A stretch of DNA of 64,000 nucleotides, taken from contig OX597818.1 in assembly GCA_951406725.2 (NCBI GenBank), forward strand, positions 104,780,001 to 104,844,000, in the 5' to 3' direction. Shown piece after piece: positions 1 to 39,400 of the stretch. A model generated the notes under the pieces. It saw only the letters and a program-made list of their open reading frames with translations. It made no database searches and had not been told where the DNA came from. The translations under genes were made by a program, and so were the position numbers. Each line of letters begins with the position of its first letter. Within the stretch, counting starts at the first letter, position 1. The stretch comes from Octopus vulgaris. Its lineage: Eukaryota.

Positions 1-2064
1 ATGCCGACACGCTCGTCCCGCAACCCAGTTCCCGTGGAACGCCCCTCAATGTCGCCAGCTTCCGCAGTAGCGGCTCGAGAGTCAATACATGCAGAAGCGC
101 CGACAGGGGACACCCCTGACGGACCGAACGCGTGATGTCAAACGGTTTCGACAGGTGACCGTTCACCCGAATCACCGATCGGATGCCGCTATACAAGGCA
201 GCGATCCAACCGCGGAAGACGGGACCGAATCCAGCCGTCTTGAGGACGGCCGCCAAGTACCGATGGTCGACCTTATCGAAGGCTTTAGACTGATCCAAAT
301 TGATCAGCGCCCCACCCATGTCAGGATCCTTAACTACCCTGTCCACAATGTAGCGCATCAGATGGAGGTTGTCATGTATGGTTCTGCCCGGCACGGCGCA
401 TGTTTGTGCCCTGTCGACCAGTTTACCAATGACAAGCGCCAACCTCTCGGCTATTACTTTGGCCAAAATTTTCAAATCTGCGTCGAGCAGAGTGATGAGC
501 CTGAAATTATCTATAAAATTCCCCTTGTTTGGATCTTTCTTCAGCAACGTCACTGCACCTCGGCTCACGAAGCCGGGGATTCTCCCGTTTTGTTGCCAGT
601 TGCAGTAGACTGATGCCAAGAGGTCGCCAAACAAGTCTGGCATTTGACAATACAGCTCGTAGGGTAAACCATCCAATCCAGGCGACTTGTCCCTCGCGCA
701 GCCCGCCATCGCATCCCGCACTTCAGCGGCCGTGATGGGACTTTCACAACACTCCGCTTCTCTTGCCGAGAGCCGCGGCAGGTCGGTCAGGTAGGCACTG
801 AAATCCATCCCGCTTTCCGACCCACCACTCGCACCAAACAGTCGAGCAAAGTGTTGTTGAAAGGCCTCACACATCCTTTCGGGTTCGCGTAAACTGCATC
901 CCTCTAAATCTATTAGAGACCGAATGGTGGCTCTGTTGCCACTCTGCGCCTCCGCTACCCGGGCCTCTCACGCAGCTTCGATCCCTTCGTTCCTTAAGGC
1001 ACGCATTTTAGCTCTGACGACGCAAACTTCGTGCTTGGCGTTGAGGTGTTGGTCGAGGGCCATCCTCGCAGCCAGCACGTTGGTTGCGCTGCCAGTGGTA
1101 AGTGCCTCTTCTAGTTTCTTAACCATTTCTCCCTCTACTCTATTTCGATCTATCGCTAATTCCTTGCTAAACCTAAATGATTCCGATTTTATTGCCATTT
1201 TCAGGGCGAACCACCAGCGGTTGTTAACGACGGCTCCCACCAGCACCCTCTTAATTAACTCGCTAATCCGGTTCCTGTAAACCTGTCGCGCTAAGTGCGA
1301 CGTGTTCAGTTTCCAGTAACCGGGACCCTGTCTATGTGTCTTATCTAAGTCGAGCGTACACGTCACAAATTTGTGATCTGTGTAGCTGACTATTGTAAAT
1401 TGTGGACATCCTACACTATCCCTATCCGCTGTCCTGCATAGAATTCTATCTAGATAAGATCTCGACGATCCGACGCGGTTTGTCCAAGTTCACGTTGACA
1501 CGTTCGGATGGTCGAGTCGGAACCTGTCAGACAAATGGAAACGTCTGAGTAGGTCTTTGAGGCACTTACACCCCCTTCTATTCCTATCCATTTCCACATA
1601 ATCTAGATGCGTGTCCAAGGTAGCTTTCCAATCCCCTACTAACAGTAAAGGTCTAGACGTACCCAGGAAAACCTCTAGACGTCTGAAGAAATTCGCCCGA
1701 CCCGTTAAGGACGGTGAATAAACTGCCATCAGACGGAATGCACACCCATTTCTGCCATCCACGTCCAAGACAACCAGCCTACCCTCCGGGTCTAGGAATA
1801 TTGTTCTTACTTTTACATTTAGATTCTTTCGAAAAAATAACCGCGGTACCTCCACCACCCATGTTCGGCAGACAGGGAGAAAAATAAAATTTCGAATTGA
1901 TCGCCAAACATGGACGCGAGGGCCCGCGGCTTGCTGAGTCTGGTTTCACTGATAGCTACTATATCCACGTTCAGTGACTTGATGTCGTTCAGAAGGTAAC
2001 CTTGTTTCCAAGCCGACGCCAAGCCACGCGCATTCACACAACCTAATTTAAGCATAATTGACAT
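1..2064 (-). pseudogene. LINE ORF2 (APE endonuclease + reverse transcriptase), disrupted
   Basis: APE motifs: CVNARGL, DIVAISETRL, EGRLVVLDV, LLVGDW, GPGYWKLN. RT motifs read on the minus strand: KSPGLDGLPYELY, NFRLITLLDADLKILAK, LDQSKAFDKVDH, SVRQGCPLS. Frameshift near 1860 and stops near 1490 and 968. Confidence 0.93.
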
Positions 2065-2121
2065 TTAAGAAATTTTTGTTTCACACACTACATTGGAAGA
2101 GATAAGAGGCAAGAGGGAAGG

Positions 2122-4056
2122 TCACTTACTCATTTCGAAAGTTTCAATTTTTTCTTCTTCTTTTGTAGTGTCTTTGAGGAGGTGTTTGAATAGTTTTTTG
2201 GAGTGGTATCTTTGAAACCCCCCTACCACATTTGGAAATATGGTTTTCTGTGTATGGTGTTGTGTTTGTGTTATGTGTACAATTCTTATGTGTTTCGGTG
2301 GTGTGGTGCGCGGATGATTATTTGTTTTAAAGTCATCTTCGCAGATGTTCGTGTTGGATGCAATGTAATCCATTAGTTTTTTTATTGTCTGTGTCTATTG
2401 CTGTTAGTTGTGTGTGTGGTTTTGCGGGGTCATTGATTTTTTGATTGTCTAGGAGGATGCTGTCCGGAGTTAAATATCTCCCTGCTTTACTTACTTGCTT
2501 GGTGGGCTTTTTTGATCTTTTCCTTTTACCCCCTGTGGTTATTTGCCATTCCGTCAAACCTTCGTCGTTGGACGACGAGTCCGACGAATCAGAAGGGGGT
2601 AAAGGCAAAGCATTTGCGTTAATATGTATGTTTGTAGAAATTGTTGATGTTTTGTGCGGTGTTTGTGTTGTTGTGGTGTTAGGGGTAGAATTTGTCTTCT
2701 CGTCACTGTTTTCTGTTTTTTTAGTTGTTGTCCTTAGTGCTGGTGTTGGTCTATCTTTTGGTGTTAGTTCAGTATGTTGAATTGGTTGCGACGTCAACGG
2801 TGATTGTGTTGGTGCTGTTTCTTTTCTTGGTGATGTTGTTGGGGTTTGTTTGCTGGATTGTTGTTTTTCTTTGCATTGTTCCATAATTGATTGTGTTGGT
2901 GTTGGTGTTGGCAACAAAGGTTTTTTATTTGTTTTCTGATTTGTTCTTTCTTGTTTTCTCTGTCCCAGAACGCACTTTGCAATTAAATGTTCTGGGCTGC
3001 CTCAGTTGTAGCATCTTGGCTTTTTGCCTTCTGCTACAACATATAGGCTTTGCCCATTCTCTAAAAGAATCTTATCAGGAAGTTTCTCGATAGAGAACCC
3101 ATCAATCTGGATGCTGACTTCTATCGATTTACCACCCCAATTGTCGTTTTTGTATACGGCAATTTCTAATATGTTTATTGCTTTTAAATGGTAACATATC
3201 GCTTCTGTTATCCATTTGTTAGGTATCTCCGGTGATACACTTTTTATTTTAATGTTACTGACTCTTTGGTTTCTGTAATAAGGAATCATTATTAGTTCAT
3301 CGTTTTGTAAAGTTTCTGTCGAGTGGGCTTTTGCCACTTCCTGGTTAGGGAAGCGGACCACCACTGTATTAAACTGGGGACCCCAGTTTATATATTCTTT
3401 TTTTTTCATGATGTTTTTTGCACACTTTTCTATGTCCGTTTTTGTAATCTGTTCATTTTGTTTTTTGGTTTTTTTTTATAATTTTATATATAATCGTTTT
3501 GTTTTCTATTTGTTCCTTTATGTGTTGAGGTGTATGCAATACTAACTCCTGCCCTTGGGTTGTAAAGAGTGCTCTCGTTTCTATTAACTCTTCATTTGTA
3601 AATTCTATTATTTCTTTTTTTCTGACGCAGGGTGTCAGCGAAGTTTACTGTTATATTCTGGCAGTTGTTGTCGTTGTGTGTTATTGTTGTTGTATCCGAA
3701 ATATTCTTGGACGTGACTTTTTCAGGTGCTGTTGATTCTGTTATGTTAATATCTTCACTATTAGATGATAAAATATTTATTTCATTTTTGTTGTTGTTCT
3801 TGTTGTTCTTGCTGTTAATTGTATTTGCGTTATTTTCATTTTTATCATTTATGTTGGTGGTGGTGGTGGTGGTGGTAGTGGTGACAGGGCTGTTAACGAA
3901 AGTGGTTGCAGCGTTCACTTCCACGTCACTCAGGTTTGTCTTTGTCGAATGTGTGTGCGTGCAGAAGTTCTTTTTTTCTCCTAGCGTTTCAAGGCTAGGA
4001 AAATGCTGATCCATAAAGGAATTTGACCAGCGTTCTACAATAAAATTTCTCGACAT
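2122..4056 (-). pseudogene. LINE ORF1 (Gag-like, CCHC zinc knuckle), disrupted
   Basis: Fragments 4056-3592, 3409-3002, 2917-2333 and 2373-2122. KKPRCYN*GSPEHLIAKC is a CX2CX4HX4C knuckle with the second Cys mutated to TGA. A low-complexity T/P/S tail follows. Confidence 0.8.
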
Positions 4057-4254
4057 TATTTAATGTCGAGAAGAAAAATATACAATTTAATTAGGGCTGA
4101 AACTGCCCCTAGGGGCGAATTCCGCCCTTGGAAAAGCACTCAAACGAAAGTTGGGTGCTTTACACACCTTATTTACAAAAATGTACACAAAATGTGGGCT
4201 ATAAATAGTCAAAATAAACGATTACCTTCGGAGCCGATGTGACAACACGTCAGT

Positions 4255-34138: not shown

Positions 34139-35150
34139 TGCGTGTGTTGATTAGTGGGAAAATATCTCGATTTAAATAAGGTAAAAAAAAAAGGAAATTA
34201 AGGTGTAAATATTTTTCCTATAAATTATCGTTCTATTTTCTTTGCTAAGTTTCTGCTTTATTTGGTTTCATTTTAACTTATTTAAGGATTTTTGTCTTTT
34301 ATTTTTTGTGGTGGATGGGAAGGAAATGTTATTGTTATTTTATTTTAATTTGCTTCTGGAAGAAGGTGGTTTGTTTGTTACAATTCGCTGGTGATTCTTT
34401 TGGGGTTTTTATTTTTATTTTCTCAGCAAATAAACACCAAGACGGATTTTGTTCTTGTTGTTGCTACTCTTCACTTGTTTCAGTGCTTTATCTATTTCTC
34501 TCTCTCTCTCTCTCTCTCTCCCTCTCTCTCTTTCCGTTTTAGCCTTTATTTCCTCTTCTTGAATTAAGAATGGTTTTGTTACAAGGTGTGAACATTTGAG
34601 GTAACATCAAGTTTGTAAACATCGTAATCATTATCATCACCATTAAATCATTCTCAGTAACATCATCACCATTACCATCAACATCATCATTATCATCAAC
34701 ATCATCCTCATCATTGTTCTTAGTATCGTCGAGATTTCTCAACTTGCACTCTACCGGCGTAAAAAAGGAAATGACAAGAGGTATTATGTTGTCCAAGATA
34801 CACTATGCCAAAAAAACAAAAGACGGAATGGCTACAGCTGGAACATCTGTAATAATATGTCTGCTGGGTCAGACTTGATTCAGACTAAGTAAAAATAACA
34901 TGATTTTTGCTTGATTTATACATTTGACCTTGTTTGTTTACAAATGTCTGAACTCAACATAAATATTTATTCACTGCATCTATCATTTCTCATACATGTC
35001 AATCATCTGCTAACGTATTGTCTGATTTTTTTAATAATTGGAGTAAACTATGTTTTATCTTCCAAGTATTTCCCTTCTTGTTTCTGTTATTGCTTTTCTT
35101 TTTCCTCCGGTGTGAGTAACAGTTATATATTTGGGGAATGTGGTAAATAG

Positions 35151-35266
35151 CTATAGGCATAGGAGTGGCTGTGTGGTAAGTAGCCATAGGTGTAGGAGTG
35201 GCTGTGTGGTAAGTAGCCATAGGTGTAGGAGTGGCTGTGTGGTAAGTAGCTTGCTAACACACATGC
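35151..35266 (+). mobile_element. SINE family A head, with its 33-bp start triplicated; interrupted by the element at 35271
   Basis: (cataggtgtaggagtggctgtgtggtaagtagc) x3. The rest of the SINE resumes at 37514. Confidence 0.85.
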
Positions 35267-35270
35267 GCAG

Positions 35271-35307
35271 TTAGTCAGTTGCTTCCTGTTCAGCCAGAGT
35301 AGACGTG
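35271..35307 (+). promoter_or_regulatory. Putative internal Pol II promoter (Inr-like TTAGTC/TCAGTT plus downstream AGACGTG)
   Basis: Motifs lie at the element's 5' end, with AGACGTG 24-28 nt downstream of the Inr-like A. This resembles LINE internal promoters. Confidence 0.45.
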
Positions 35308-35955
35308 AGTCAACCAGCTCCGTCCAATTAAAGAAAAAAGACCAAAAACGGAATTTGTCGAGGTAAGTGATTTTGTTTATTGTGAGTTGGGCATAATTTA
35401 TTGCGTGCCAATTATTATTTCAGTAAGTTGTGTCCAACTCTGAGACAATTTCGCCTGCTCTCGGCGGCTGCCGTTTTTGTGTTCATTGAAAAAAAAAGAA
35501 AAAACAGTGGAGGGGCGTATCCTCGGAATTCAATACAGTTACTGTTAAAATTACCGTTGGCGGTAGCCAGTGCTGTGTTTGGGTTTGTTGAATTTATTCC
35601 CTTGTCAGAGTACTTCGCAAGAAAATTATAAAAATAAGCCACTATTGGATTACCTTTCGGACCCATTTTTGTGGAGGTTGTGTTGCAGTTGCGGCGTTCC
35701 AGGTTCAACCCAGGCCGGGAGTACCGCAAGGCCAGAATATTTTTGCTGTGTTTTTTCTGTTTATTAACTTTCTTTTGAACTTCATTTAACCCCCCCCCTT
35801 TTGTTTTTTTCTTTATTGCGACTTTCCGTTGATTTCTTCCCTTCTGTTGTGCTTTGTCCTTTTTGTTTTTTCAAAAATCTATCAAATTTTATTTGGACTT
35901 TTGAACTTTTTTCTTCTTGCTTTTTGAGTTTAATTTGAATATATTTAAAAAAAAC

Positions 35956-36672
35956 ATGGCAATGAAAAATAACAAAATTTTGGAGTGGAAAATCATACCA
36001 CCTAAAAAGTGGTTAAAAGACCGTGAAGATAGGACGGTGGTGTTGAAAACCTACTCCAAGGCACTCGACACCATCGCCCTATTCGAAAAGACGGCAATTG
36101 AAAAGGAGTTGGAAGAGTATTTGCCAACAATTAAATTCATTTCCAGGGGTGTCAAATATGCAACGGTGTGGTTGCTATTTGACACCCCTGAAGAGGCTTG
36201 CAAATTTGCTAGCAAACCCCTGGAGGGTAAGGAAATCTTATTCCTGCCCACGTACAAAAAAAAGAAATTGATGAAAGCTTGGATCTGCGGGCTGCCACCC
36301 GACATAGAACTCGAGTGGATAGAGGAGACTATCCGCCGGGTTCTGGGTGGCAGCGAAACTAAGCTCCTTAATGTAAAAGTTCTTCCTGCGGCTGCTTGGG
36401 TTGGGTCAAAAGCAATTTTGACCCTGTGGACCCAATCAGCCAATCTGGTTCTTCCAGATTTTTTGAAAATGGCCGGGTGCAGGTACCCGGTGATGCTTGA
36501 GGGTCGCTCCCCTAAGTGTCATCGGTGCTTGGAGTCCGGCCACATAAAGAAGAACTGTCCCCGGGAACAAAATAGGATCCCGGAACAGTTAAGTAAAACC
36601 CCTCTAGAAGAGGGAATGATAGCGGCCGAGAAAGCAGAGGACTCCTCAAACAGAGGCCGAAGAGGAAGGTGA
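35956..36672 (+). CDS. ORF1/Gag-like nucleic-acid-binding protein with CCHC knuckle; probably continues by frameshift into 36669-37196
   Basis: Aligns by eye with ORF1 of the LINE at 3002-3550, for example FISRGVKYATVWLLF vs YINWGPQFNTVVVRF, and MLEGRSPKCHRC vs VAEGKKPRCYN*. Confidence 0.75.
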   Translation: MAMKNNKILEWKIIPPKKWLKDREDRTVVLKTYSKALDTIALFEKTAIEKELEEYLPTIKFISRGVKYATVWLLFDTPEEACKFASKPLEGKEILFLPTYKKKKLMKAWICGLPPDIELEWIEETIRRVLGGSETKLLNVKVLPAAAWVGSKAILTLWTQSANLVLPDFLKMAGCRYPVMLEGRSPKCHRCLESGHIKKNCPREQNRIPEQLSKTPLEEGMIAAEKAEDSSNRGRRGR

Positions 36673-37513
36673 GCAACAATGGGTGCTCACCAAAGGATAA
36701 TAGGGATGAGGAGAGGAAGGCGAATCTTCCGGCCACGGAGGAGACGCACCCTCCCTCAGTTGAAAAGGGAAAAAAAGAGAAAAAGAGGAAGAAAAATGGG
36801 ACATTGCCGGCTGTCAGTGACATAGCACCGGAATGTCCCGGAACTACGTCGGTTGGGGTTGTGCCACCGACAAGAGAAGGAATACCGTTGGCGGGAACTG
36901 TGCCGCCAACGAAAGAACTGAACGTATTGGTCCTCTTCTATAGAGGAGGCGAAATTGAAAAGGTGATGGAAGAGCACCACAAGGGAGCACCTTTAGCCTT
37001 CACACAGGACCCCGAATGGCCTCCGCAGGTAGCTGTGGAGGCCGTGGCGTTCGACGTGACGCTTGGGCTAAAGGAGCTCAATGAAGATTATAACTTGGTC
37101 CCGGGCGACGCAAACTCGGAACTTGATTACGTTCTGAGGGAGGCGTGGTTGATGGTGGAGGGCGCGGGCACAAGCTATTTCGAGGACGATATGTAATTAT
37201 TGAACTGTTATTATTAGTAATGGACTACTAAGTTCAAAAATTGAAAAATTGTAAGAGGTTTAATACCTCGTTTTGTAATAATGGACTGCTAAGTCCAAAA
37301 ATTTGAAAAATTGTAAGAGGTTTAATACCTCGTTTTGTGTTTATCTTTAAAAAGAACAATGTTTTAGAGAAGCGAAAGTCGGCGGGCGCTTTTTGTCTTC
37401 TCCCATCCTTATCATCTTTCTTTCATTATCATTCACTTCATTAATGTCCTCGTCCAGCCCGCAAAGCTAACTTAATCTGTGTACTGCCTTTATGGCAAAT
37501 GTTTTGAAATAAA

Positions 37514-37660
37514 GTAGGTTGCTTATGAGGCACAATGTTCCGGGTTCAGTCCCACTGCGTGACACCTTGGGCAAGTGTCTTCTACTATAGCCTCGGACTG
37601 ACCAAAGCCTTGTGAGTGGATTTGGTAGACGGAAACTGAAAGAAGTCTGTCGTTTATACG

Positions 37661-37706
<46 letters not shown>

Positions 37707-37717
37707 ACGTTTATACG

Positions 37718-37766
<49 letters not shown>

Positions 37767-37990
37767 AGTATGTATGTGTGCGTATATATGTTTGTATGTC
37801 TGTGTTTGTACCCCCAACATCACTTGACAACAGATGCTGGTGTGTTTACGTCCCCGTAACTTAGCGGTTCGGCAAAATAGACCGATAGAATAAGTACTAG
37901 GCTTACAAAGAATAAGTCCTGGGGTCGATTTGTTCGACTAAAGGCGGTGCTCCAGCATGGCCACAGTCAAATGACTGAAACAAGTAAAAG
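37514..37990 (+). mobile_element. SINE family A, remainder of the copy begun at 35151
   Basis: Begins gtaggttgctta...gttccgggttcagtcccactgcg and runs to the family tail. Confidence 0.88.
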
Positions 37991-39400
37991 ATAATGGGAT
38001 ATCTGTCTGAGACAGATATCCCATTATTTCTGTCGTCGGGATTTATCTCAGGTCAAGAGAGTCAACTCTCACCGATGTGGTTCATCTTTCTGTAAATAGG
38101 CAACTTGAATGGAGTACAGCTCGCAGCTCCAAGAAATAGAACTTTATATTGAACAAATGTTTCGCTTAACTTTCAGTAATGAGAAGGAGATATCCTTTTG
38201 GGTCGAACTATGACACAATAAAAAAAGACACACAGCTTTGATTCACGTTGATACTTTTTAATGAGAATGATCACCACCCATGTAAATGATATTTTTTCTT
38301 ATAACTTCATTTCATTTTGAAAATGAACACTCTGATTTGTTTATTTTAATGGTCATCAATCTATACAGTGAGTTTATTGCCTTAGGTCTCGGGAAGGCAC
38401 TCAGCAAGAAGTGAATCAAACTTGGAAGAAGAAAAAAACTAATAATTATATCTTAGACACAAAGCCATCAATTTTAAATGGAATAATTAGCTGATTAAAT
38501 TGATTTTAGTATTTGACTGGTACTTTATTTTACCGAGCCCCCAGAGATGAAAGGAAAGGCTGACTTCGGTGGAATTTGAACACAGAATCTACAGCCAGAA
38601 ACAAGGCCACAAGACATTTTAACTATGCTCTGACGGATCTGCTAATCCAGTGTTTTGATCCCTTGGCATTAAAACTGTTTTATATTCAAACTGATCAGAT
38701 CCGACCTCTCACCCCTACCCTACACTATCATGTTGAAATTACATAATCGCAATTCACATCATCCAATTTCGAAGCTACGAGATAAAGCGTGATTAATTTA
38801 AAACAATGTGAATAAATAAGCATTTCGTTTGACAGGGTAATCTGAATGTTCAAGGTTAAGGCGTAATATAAGAATAAGAACGAAGGAATGAGCAATAATT
38901 AAAACATGACACCTGTAGGAGATTTGAAAACATGCGAGTATCTATTTACAGGTAAAACAATACTTCATCCACGCGGCCCACATGCTTCCATAGCTAAGCG
39001 ACAATTCTAATTTGTTCAATGCTTCAACACAGTGGATTTTTAAGCTACTGTTGTTGTTGTTGTCGTTGTTATTGTGTCGTTGTTTTTCGCTTTCTCCGCA
39101 GCTGACGATAAATTGGTTACGTTAGAGACATTATTGGTTATTAAATGCTTCATTTCAACGTGTGAAGGTGTCGACATAAATATTTGAAAATTCAAAGGAA
39201 ATTGCTCAAGCAAGAAACCAATCAAGTGAGTACTATTTATACTTTCATCATCATCATCGTCATCATCGTCGTTGTCCAGAGTGACTTGCCTAGACCAGCG
39301 CAATTTGTCCACGCCTGATGTCCCGATCAAGCGATGAGATATGAATATCAACCTTGGGTTTTAGTTATCTTGAAATAACCCATCGGAGTACGCCACCACT

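Follow-up and report, generated by a model that had tools for sequence, protein, structure and literature searches.

A 64,000-nt stretch of Octopus vulgaris contig OX597818.1 (hereafter, the window) contains a 2.2-kb unit with a CCHC open reading frame, lying between the two halves of a SINE. How does an element encoding only an ORF1-type protein come to occupy this position, and what copies it? The initial annotation proposed a HAL1-like family that may target SINE or tRNA heads. According to our analysis, the window element belongs to a non-autonomous, ORF1-only retroelement family inserted at a fixed base of the SINE head, and its own reading frame is shifted.

The unit spans 2258 bp (35254–37511), with the SINE head on its left, the SINE body on its right and no ORF2, as first described (Table 1). 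The head is triplicated. Its motif GTGGCTGTGTGG is what we take to be an A-box-like element, and GGTTCAGTCC at 37543–37552 in the SINE body is presumably B-box-like. The sequence duplicated at the flanks is AAGTAGCTT(G), the right copy of which is mutated. A longer duplication had been proposed. The left bases after AAGTAGCTT (CTAAC..CACATG) follow the element family and are discordant with the host SINE in 18 of 53 scorable full-length loci; they are therefore the element's own look-alike of the target and lie outside the duplication. The terminal AATAAA is present, but it consists of the element's final AATA and the target's AA, and is not wholly element sequence.

Table 1. Features of the ORF1-only element and its host SINE in the window.
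Feature	Position	Strand	Evidence or remark
Host SINE head, three 33-bp tandem units	35153–35243	+	The rest of the window has ten SINE heads without interruption; 82,585 pattern matches genome-wide
Target-site duplication, left copy (AAGTAGCTTG)	35244–35253	+	Truncated relatives have 15–16 nt duplications with shared rare variants (L232, L190, L317)
5′ UTR, type A; opens with a look-alike of the SINE's following bases	35254–35955	+	Splice-donor-like site at 35360–35368
Single ORF1-like gene, frameshifted at 36659 in the window copy	35956–37196	+	Encodes two predicted RRMs (aa 14–103, 101–185), a CCHC knuckle with codons from 36517, a basic linker and a C-terminal part that is conserved
3′ UTR with 62-bp tandem repeat at about 37215–37338	37197–37511	+	
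GC word, complementary to the box at 37455–37462	37381–37388	+	Possible long-range pair
Word AAAGCTAACTT, complementary to the target; a bulged version of AAGCTACTT (AAGTAGCTT reverse-complemented)	37463–37473	+	
Terminal hairpin TGCC-N5-GGCA, common to the partner LINE	37485–37497	+	Closing pair T-A, C-G or G-C depending on family
AATAAA spanning the element/target junction	37508–37513	+	
Target-site duplication, right copy, mutated (AAGTAGGTTG)	37512–37521	+	
Host SINE body with AT microsatellite and tail	37522–37991	+	

The 5′ UTR is a candidate location for an internal promoter. It contains a splice-donor-like AGGTAAG (window 35360–35368). This motif recurs in 47 of 54 copies (within L061–L120), 80–120 nt from the start of the 5′ UTR, and is kept across 5′ UTR types that are otherwise unlike each other; no spliced form was identified. 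Contigs assembled from four runs presumed to be RNA, which may be DNA, cover the element piecewise; of their 129 joints, the 15 listed included no GT..AG splice. The complementarity between the GC word and the box at 37455–37462, located just before the target-complementary word, is conserved across families. ARAGORN detected no tRNA in the window, and Rfam returned no family at gathering score within 35000–38100. Features of an LTR element or provirus are lacking: there are no long direct repeats at the ends and no RT inside, and the partner described below is a non-LTR LINE.

A 26-nt pattern of the 3′ end gave at least 215 exact matches in the genome (reversed control, 0), 187 of which run on into GTAGCTTG. 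A DNA search, with 40 of 3309 candidates scored, recovered copies 94–98% identical to the window element. Flanks were sampled for 60 copies, drawn in genome order from the first 67 listed end matches. All 60 ended at the target 9-mer, with up to 2 mismatches allowed. The insertion sites are therefore not random, and the same SINE position is hit each time, as had been suspected. The right flank was the SINE body in 57 copies and another element in 3; the left flank was a SINE head in 50, the end of another element in 7 and neither in 3. The SINE head is the target, and no tRNA-gene target occurred among the flanks read. A poly(A) tail, which is a feature of L1, was absent at all 60 3′ flanks.

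From junction to junction, 56 of the 60 copies measured 1.9–2.6 kb. ORF2 homology was detected in 3 of 90 loci, each time outside the element. The expected size of about 2.2 kb without ORF2 is thus general. With at least 215 copies of one structure, encoding an ORF1-type protein only, the proposal of a HAL1-like, ORF1-only family was borne out. An ORF1-type protein without EN or RT, fixed ends and purifying selection on ORF1 place the element in the class of multicopy ORF1-only elements. Three 5′ UTR types exist, together with mosaics of them. The 5′ UTR, ORF halves and 3′ UTR are also swapped between families (L075, L079, L080, L085, L086, L087, L094, L106, L125), which suggests template switching or recombination inside stacks.

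The reported homology of the CCHC frame to ORF1 of another LINE in the window was recovered (26% identity over 148 aa, E 3e-13; LINE ORF1 at 3005–3475). Intact copies carry one such ORF, of 412–414 aa, but in the window copy a one-base gap splits it into a 238-aa and a 199-aa frame. Since intact copies read one ORF, we rejected a programmed frameshift as the link between these two frames. The ORF was intact in only 7 of the 30 best copies and broken in 23. Positions of the frameshift recur among these copies (L001–L030), with a truncation at 238 aa in 3 of 30 and at 288–289 aa in 9 of 30; broken masters may have been copied, or slippage may occur at A runs.

Sequence searches against Pfam and PDB returned the zinc knuckle only. 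A structure model of residues 1–215, built from an alignment of 101 sequences, reached a pLDDT of 90.6, while the single-sequence fold (pLDDT only 36) was unusable. In Foldseek, the model matched tandem-RRM proteins with a best E of 5e-5 and low whole-model TM-scores. The single RRMs matched known structures at aa 14–103 (Z 8.8, rmsd 2.8, 80 aligned) and aa 101–182 (Z 8.2, rmsd 2.6, 75 aligned). The protein is thus predicted to bind RNA through two RRMs and a CCHC knuckle. Transposase_22 was absent among the Pfam families matched by the 101 aligned proteins. The combination of RRM and CCHC is described in PMC5203782 as type I ORF1p.

Purifying selection, raised as a possibility together with an intact frame, was supported. 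In the N-terminal part, dN/dS was 0.10–0.26 (six ORF1-only proteins, 15 pairs, counting method, with dS near saturation in far pairs), and two close pairs gave 0.14 and 0.16. Constraint was weaker in the C-terminal part, with dN/dS of 0.23–0.73 where computable. ORF1-only proteins of other families share 62–68% identity with that of the window family vs. 25–28% with the partner ORF1. The octopus gene models LOC115225585, “EPM2A-interacting 1-like” and LOC118765946 (P0004, P0127, P0128) match the ORF1 profile; they are likely retroelement-encoded and were mistaken for host genes in annotation. The nearest named proteins come from Octopus sinensis, O. vulgaris and Argonauta.

Among 13 neighbours of sampled copies, we found other ORF1-only families and, in 3 cases, a LINE at the same SINE base. 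In one such LINE, L127, ORF2 is intact and encodes 1133 aa, including endonuclease, RT and zinc domains. As in the Tx1 clade, the partner ORF2 combines an APE endonuclease, an RT and a C-terminal zinc motif, and the partner has a type I ORF1 and inserts sequence-specifically into a repeat. The closest solved structure to its ORF2 is human L1 ORF2p (E 8e-66), and no Tx1-named reference occurred among the relatives or cluster members of this ORF2. The partner is likely an L1/Tx1-like LINE, as judged by domain content and behaviour.

The tail pattern of the partner has 159 matches in the genome. Nucleotide alignment of the L128-type partner with the window element is limited to the last 40 nt (80%), which include the terminal hairpin TGCC-N5-GGCA or its variants CGCC/GGCG and GGCC/GGCC; at the protein level, the two ORF1s are about 30% identical. 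A pattern of this shared end occurs at 1122 places, of which 853 continue exactly into the target: 698 into AAGTAGC and 155 into AAGAAGC. Mixed tandem stacks are common; L126 comprises five 2-kb units and a window-type copy, and a stack on C1 has seven ends at 2-kb spacing. From the shared site, the shared tail and the mixed stacks, we infer that the partner LINE supplies EN–RT activity to the ORF1-only element in trans.

The window LINE with the related ORF1 (3002–3550) is a relative, and was rejected as the partner because of its location in TATC repeats and because its tail and site both differ. It occupies positions 1–4250 (minus strand) between TATC microsatellites, its RT is 65% identical to that of the partner, and a second copy adjoins it outside the window (L323). 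It likely represents a sister family that targets microsatellites and ends in another tail.

The explanation that best fits these sequence data, and that we hold with high confidence, is target-primed reverse transcription of the ORF1-only element at the fixed SINE base by the partner ORF2p acting in trans. The element would be transcribed from its own 5′ end and read through into the target, which completes AATAAA. The partner ORF2p would then bind the shared terminal hairpin and nick the bottom strand at GGT|AAGTAGC. Annealing of the read-through bases to the freed DNA end would let copying start exactly at the junction, with no poly(A); the completion of AATAAA only by the target's AA and the absence of poly(A) at the junctions fit such annealing of read-through RNA to the nicked strand. 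Within the RNA, the upstream antisense word would base-pair with this read-through segment; the displaced top strand is a possible second partner. The duplication would recreate the target site, at which further elements could stack. The encoded ORF1-type protein likely packages the RNA, alone or together with the partner ORF1p.

Two other accounts of the copies were weighed against transposition in trans. The element could have arisen from an autonomous LINE by an internal deletion, either recent or confined to this one copy, and its ORF1 and last 40 nt are indeed homologous to the partner. In that case other copies would retain ORF2, yet the at least 215 copies share one structure and no ORF2 lies inside any of 90 loci. 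Moreover, ORF1-only proteins are 62–68% identical between families vs. 25–28% to the partner ORF1 and evolve under purifying selection. They therefore represent a protein-coding lineage of some age; we regard the probability of a fresh deletion as negligible. Alternatively, the composite of SINE head, insert and SINE body could have arisen once and been moved as a whole by the SINE's own LINE. This would accommodate the 3 of 60 copies that have a SINE body but no head (L066, L077, L117), as well as the similarity among host SINE bodies, which at 0.90 exceeds that of 30 free SINEs (0.79). However, the elements themselves are more alike still (0.97), and identical pairs numbered 2 of 1431 among hosts vs. 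175 of 1431 among element UTRs. The SINE head is retained in 12 of 13 5′-truncated partner copies (8 of 9 in one set, from which three internally deleted copies were left out, plus L234, L241, L140 and L146), therefore pointing to site-specific insertion rather than hitch-hiking. Several truncated ORF1-only copies also retain the head. Rare host variants occur on both sides of the insert at L232, L190 and L317, with duplications of up to 15–16 nt, and different families stack at one site. Movement of a ready-made composite is thus very improbable.

Upstream of the terminal hairpin, both kinds of tail contain AGCT(A/T)C, which corresponds to the target core in reverse complement. This word lies 39–46 nt from the end in ORF1-only tails and 77–79 nt in partner tails, and the surroundings of the two do not align. 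Its best match was 6.1–8.4 nt over the 16-nt flank vs. a mean of 5.2–6.2 nt over 330 nt of upstream UTR; with the lower upstream match, an internal pairing partner in the UTR was rejected. In the window family the word is bulged, and the mean perfect match of non-autonomous TAC ends is 6.1 nt. Among 82,585 intact SINE heads genome-wide, 4,933 (6.0%) are of the AAGAAG type; the 15% obtained from the first 100 SINE matches is a local figure. None of the 215 window-family ends lies in an AAGAAG host.

The correspondence between word and target was examined in a blind test, in which loci were chosen on the word alone (the first 30 of 409 and the first 30 of 973) and unparsed rows were judged by eye. 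Of 30 AGCTTC tails, 25 had an AAGAAG-type junction and 1 had such a host in mutated form; the flank was non-SINE or unclear in the other 4. AGCTAC tails (n = 30) had an AAGTAG junction in 28 cases, three of them in one stack, and 2 were unclear. The opposite SINE variant was found in neither set, although copies within a family are not independent. Among partner LINEs, the count of A to T targets was 3 to 0 for the TTC word and 1 to 29 for the TAC word. Mismatches were found among loci chosen by their AAGAAG flank, as a TAC-tail subfamily of six non-autonomous ends.

In a UTR tree of 71 representatives with the word removed, seven changes were counted (bootstrap 7–8), four of which are forced by starred branches; an earlier tree of 44 rows forced only two switches. 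Independent pairs (n = 4) gave 3.3 changes in the same direction and 0.0 in the opposite one, an underpowered comparison (p = 0.25). The covariation is confounded by the age of the SINE variants and by recombination between UTRs. Predicted folds of eight ends show the word paired to read-through bases in seven; the z-score falls below −2 in just two of the eight and is weak in six. The window copy itself does not form this pair because its flank is mutated. As the tail word is complementary to the target and changes with it, RNA pairing likely takes part in insertion. On these sequence comparisons, pairing of the antisense word is probably functional, most plausibly with the read-through bases, whereas a contribution of the pairing to the choice of insertion site is doubtful.

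Such a contribution would mean that RNA helps to choose the DNA target in an APE-type LINE system. Both target strands, as antisense word and read-through, would be present in a 3′-end stem that undergoes strand exchange with the nicked SINE, and a one-base change would retune the element and its passengers to a new SINE subfamily. We put this forward tentatively, as a possibility and not as the favoured reading. It competes with a scheme, to which we give about an even chance, in which the partner endonuclease alone chooses the site. The word would then only close a hairpin with the read-through RNA, giving the 3′ end its shape, and would track the target as it changes with time. The predicted pairing with read-through bases, the TAC-tail copies in AAGAAG hosts and the older appearance of TTC-type partner copies (ORF2 fragments 69–87% identical to P0003) agree with this scheme, as does the statement in PMC4494074 that target choice is set mainly by the endonuclease. 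Alone, it does not explain the association of the left-end variant with the host SINE subfamily (p = 0.018); otherwise, endonuclease choice and RNA guidance are inseparable by sequence alone. The covariation may also be functionless, if the word acquires flank sequence by template switching at an imperfect inverted repeat, or if element families and SINE variants were merely contemporaneous. The word and flank do form an inverted repeat of 7–10 nt, 40–80 nt apart, and the tree test was not significant. Nevertheless, the position of the word is kept in tails whose surroundings do not align, the six mismatched TAC tails stay uncorrected, and coexistence alone would not switch that base 4–7 times. 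Furthermore, upstream 25-nt windows match the flank over at least 6 nt in only 92 of 2301 cases. We therefore consider a functionless origin improbable and retain a functional pairing as the preferred reading.

HAL1, HeT-A and Ag-Sponge are described as non-autonomous LINEs in which ORF1 is present, with an ORF1p thought to assemble with partner proteins (PMC5753468, PMC5786205). The octopus element resembles them in keeping ORF1 only, in its LINE-like ends and in its many copies. In contrast to mammalian HAL1, with its type II ORF1, it has a type I ORF1 (RRMs and CCHC). It further differs from HAL1 in the lack of poly(A) (0 of 60 3′ junctions), the one strict SINE base, the many parallel families in mixed stacks and the mollusc host. 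By ORF1 type and poly(A), it is not a member of HAL1 in the strict sense.

Target-specific LINEs of the Tx1 clade described in PMC4494074 include Tx1 (targeting Tx1D), Keno (U2), Kibi and Koshi (microsatellites) and Tx1-Mar, which is accompanied by SINEU-3. The octopus system is like them in that an APE-type LINE is directed at a repeat present in many copies, insertions lie in tandem around a duplication, and a non-autonomous passenger uses the target of its LINE. Tx1-Mar with SINEU-3 is the closest known pair among those given in this source. Here, unlike in these systems, the target is a tRNA-like SINE head, between the A- and B-box-like motifs, and the passenger encodes a protein. The Tx1 targets named in the consulted portion of PMC4494074 are DNA transposons, LTR elements, snRNA genes and microsatellites, with no SINE among them. 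For SART1Bm and R1Bm, target sequence in or after the 3′ UTR is reported to anneal to the cut bottom strand and to set the start of copying (PMC7265360), and similar annealing is proposed for the read-through bases of the octopus element. In contrast to those sense words, the octopus word is antisense, lies upstream and changes together with the target; its pairing partner would be the read-through sequence or the top strand. The CORE-SINE OR1 and other SINEs derived from tRNA in octopus are described in PMC4824008; the host repeat is likewise a tRNA-like SINE in octopus, set beside OR1 by description only.

ORF1-only LINE parasites and target-specific Tx1 LINEs are thus each known. No such combination at a SINE promoter region, here that of a repeat exceeding 80,000 copies, was found in the openly accessible literature searched, Repbase entries aside. 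Each insertion separates the A- and B-box-like motifs of the SINE, and the elements can therefore be called parasites of a parasite. The families provide natural variants for two questions: the role of ORF1p in an element without ORF2, and RNA–DNA pairing in the site choice of non-LTR retrotransposition, for which two tail words, two target variants and an intact partner ORF2 are at hand. If RNA-assisted site choice is true, the community of LINE and passengers would have followed changes in its host SINE by switching several times, and the system would bear on programmable insertion by LINE proteins.

Several smaller features of the junctions were also recorded. Head repeats occur in 33-bp units, each stopping at the target site (window 35153–35250), and similar repeats are found in L318 (G000:C10, near 87.58 Mb). 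As the latter directly follow the end of a partner LINE, these repeats may be by-products of the same nicking. One ORF1-only copy (L157/L269, G000:C1:68300492) lies in the opposite orientation in a SINE head, at the quasi-palindromic AAGCAAGCT. Finally, at some 3′ junctions (L139, L333, L380) the AAATA end is duplicated over a short length, which fits slippage as copying starts.
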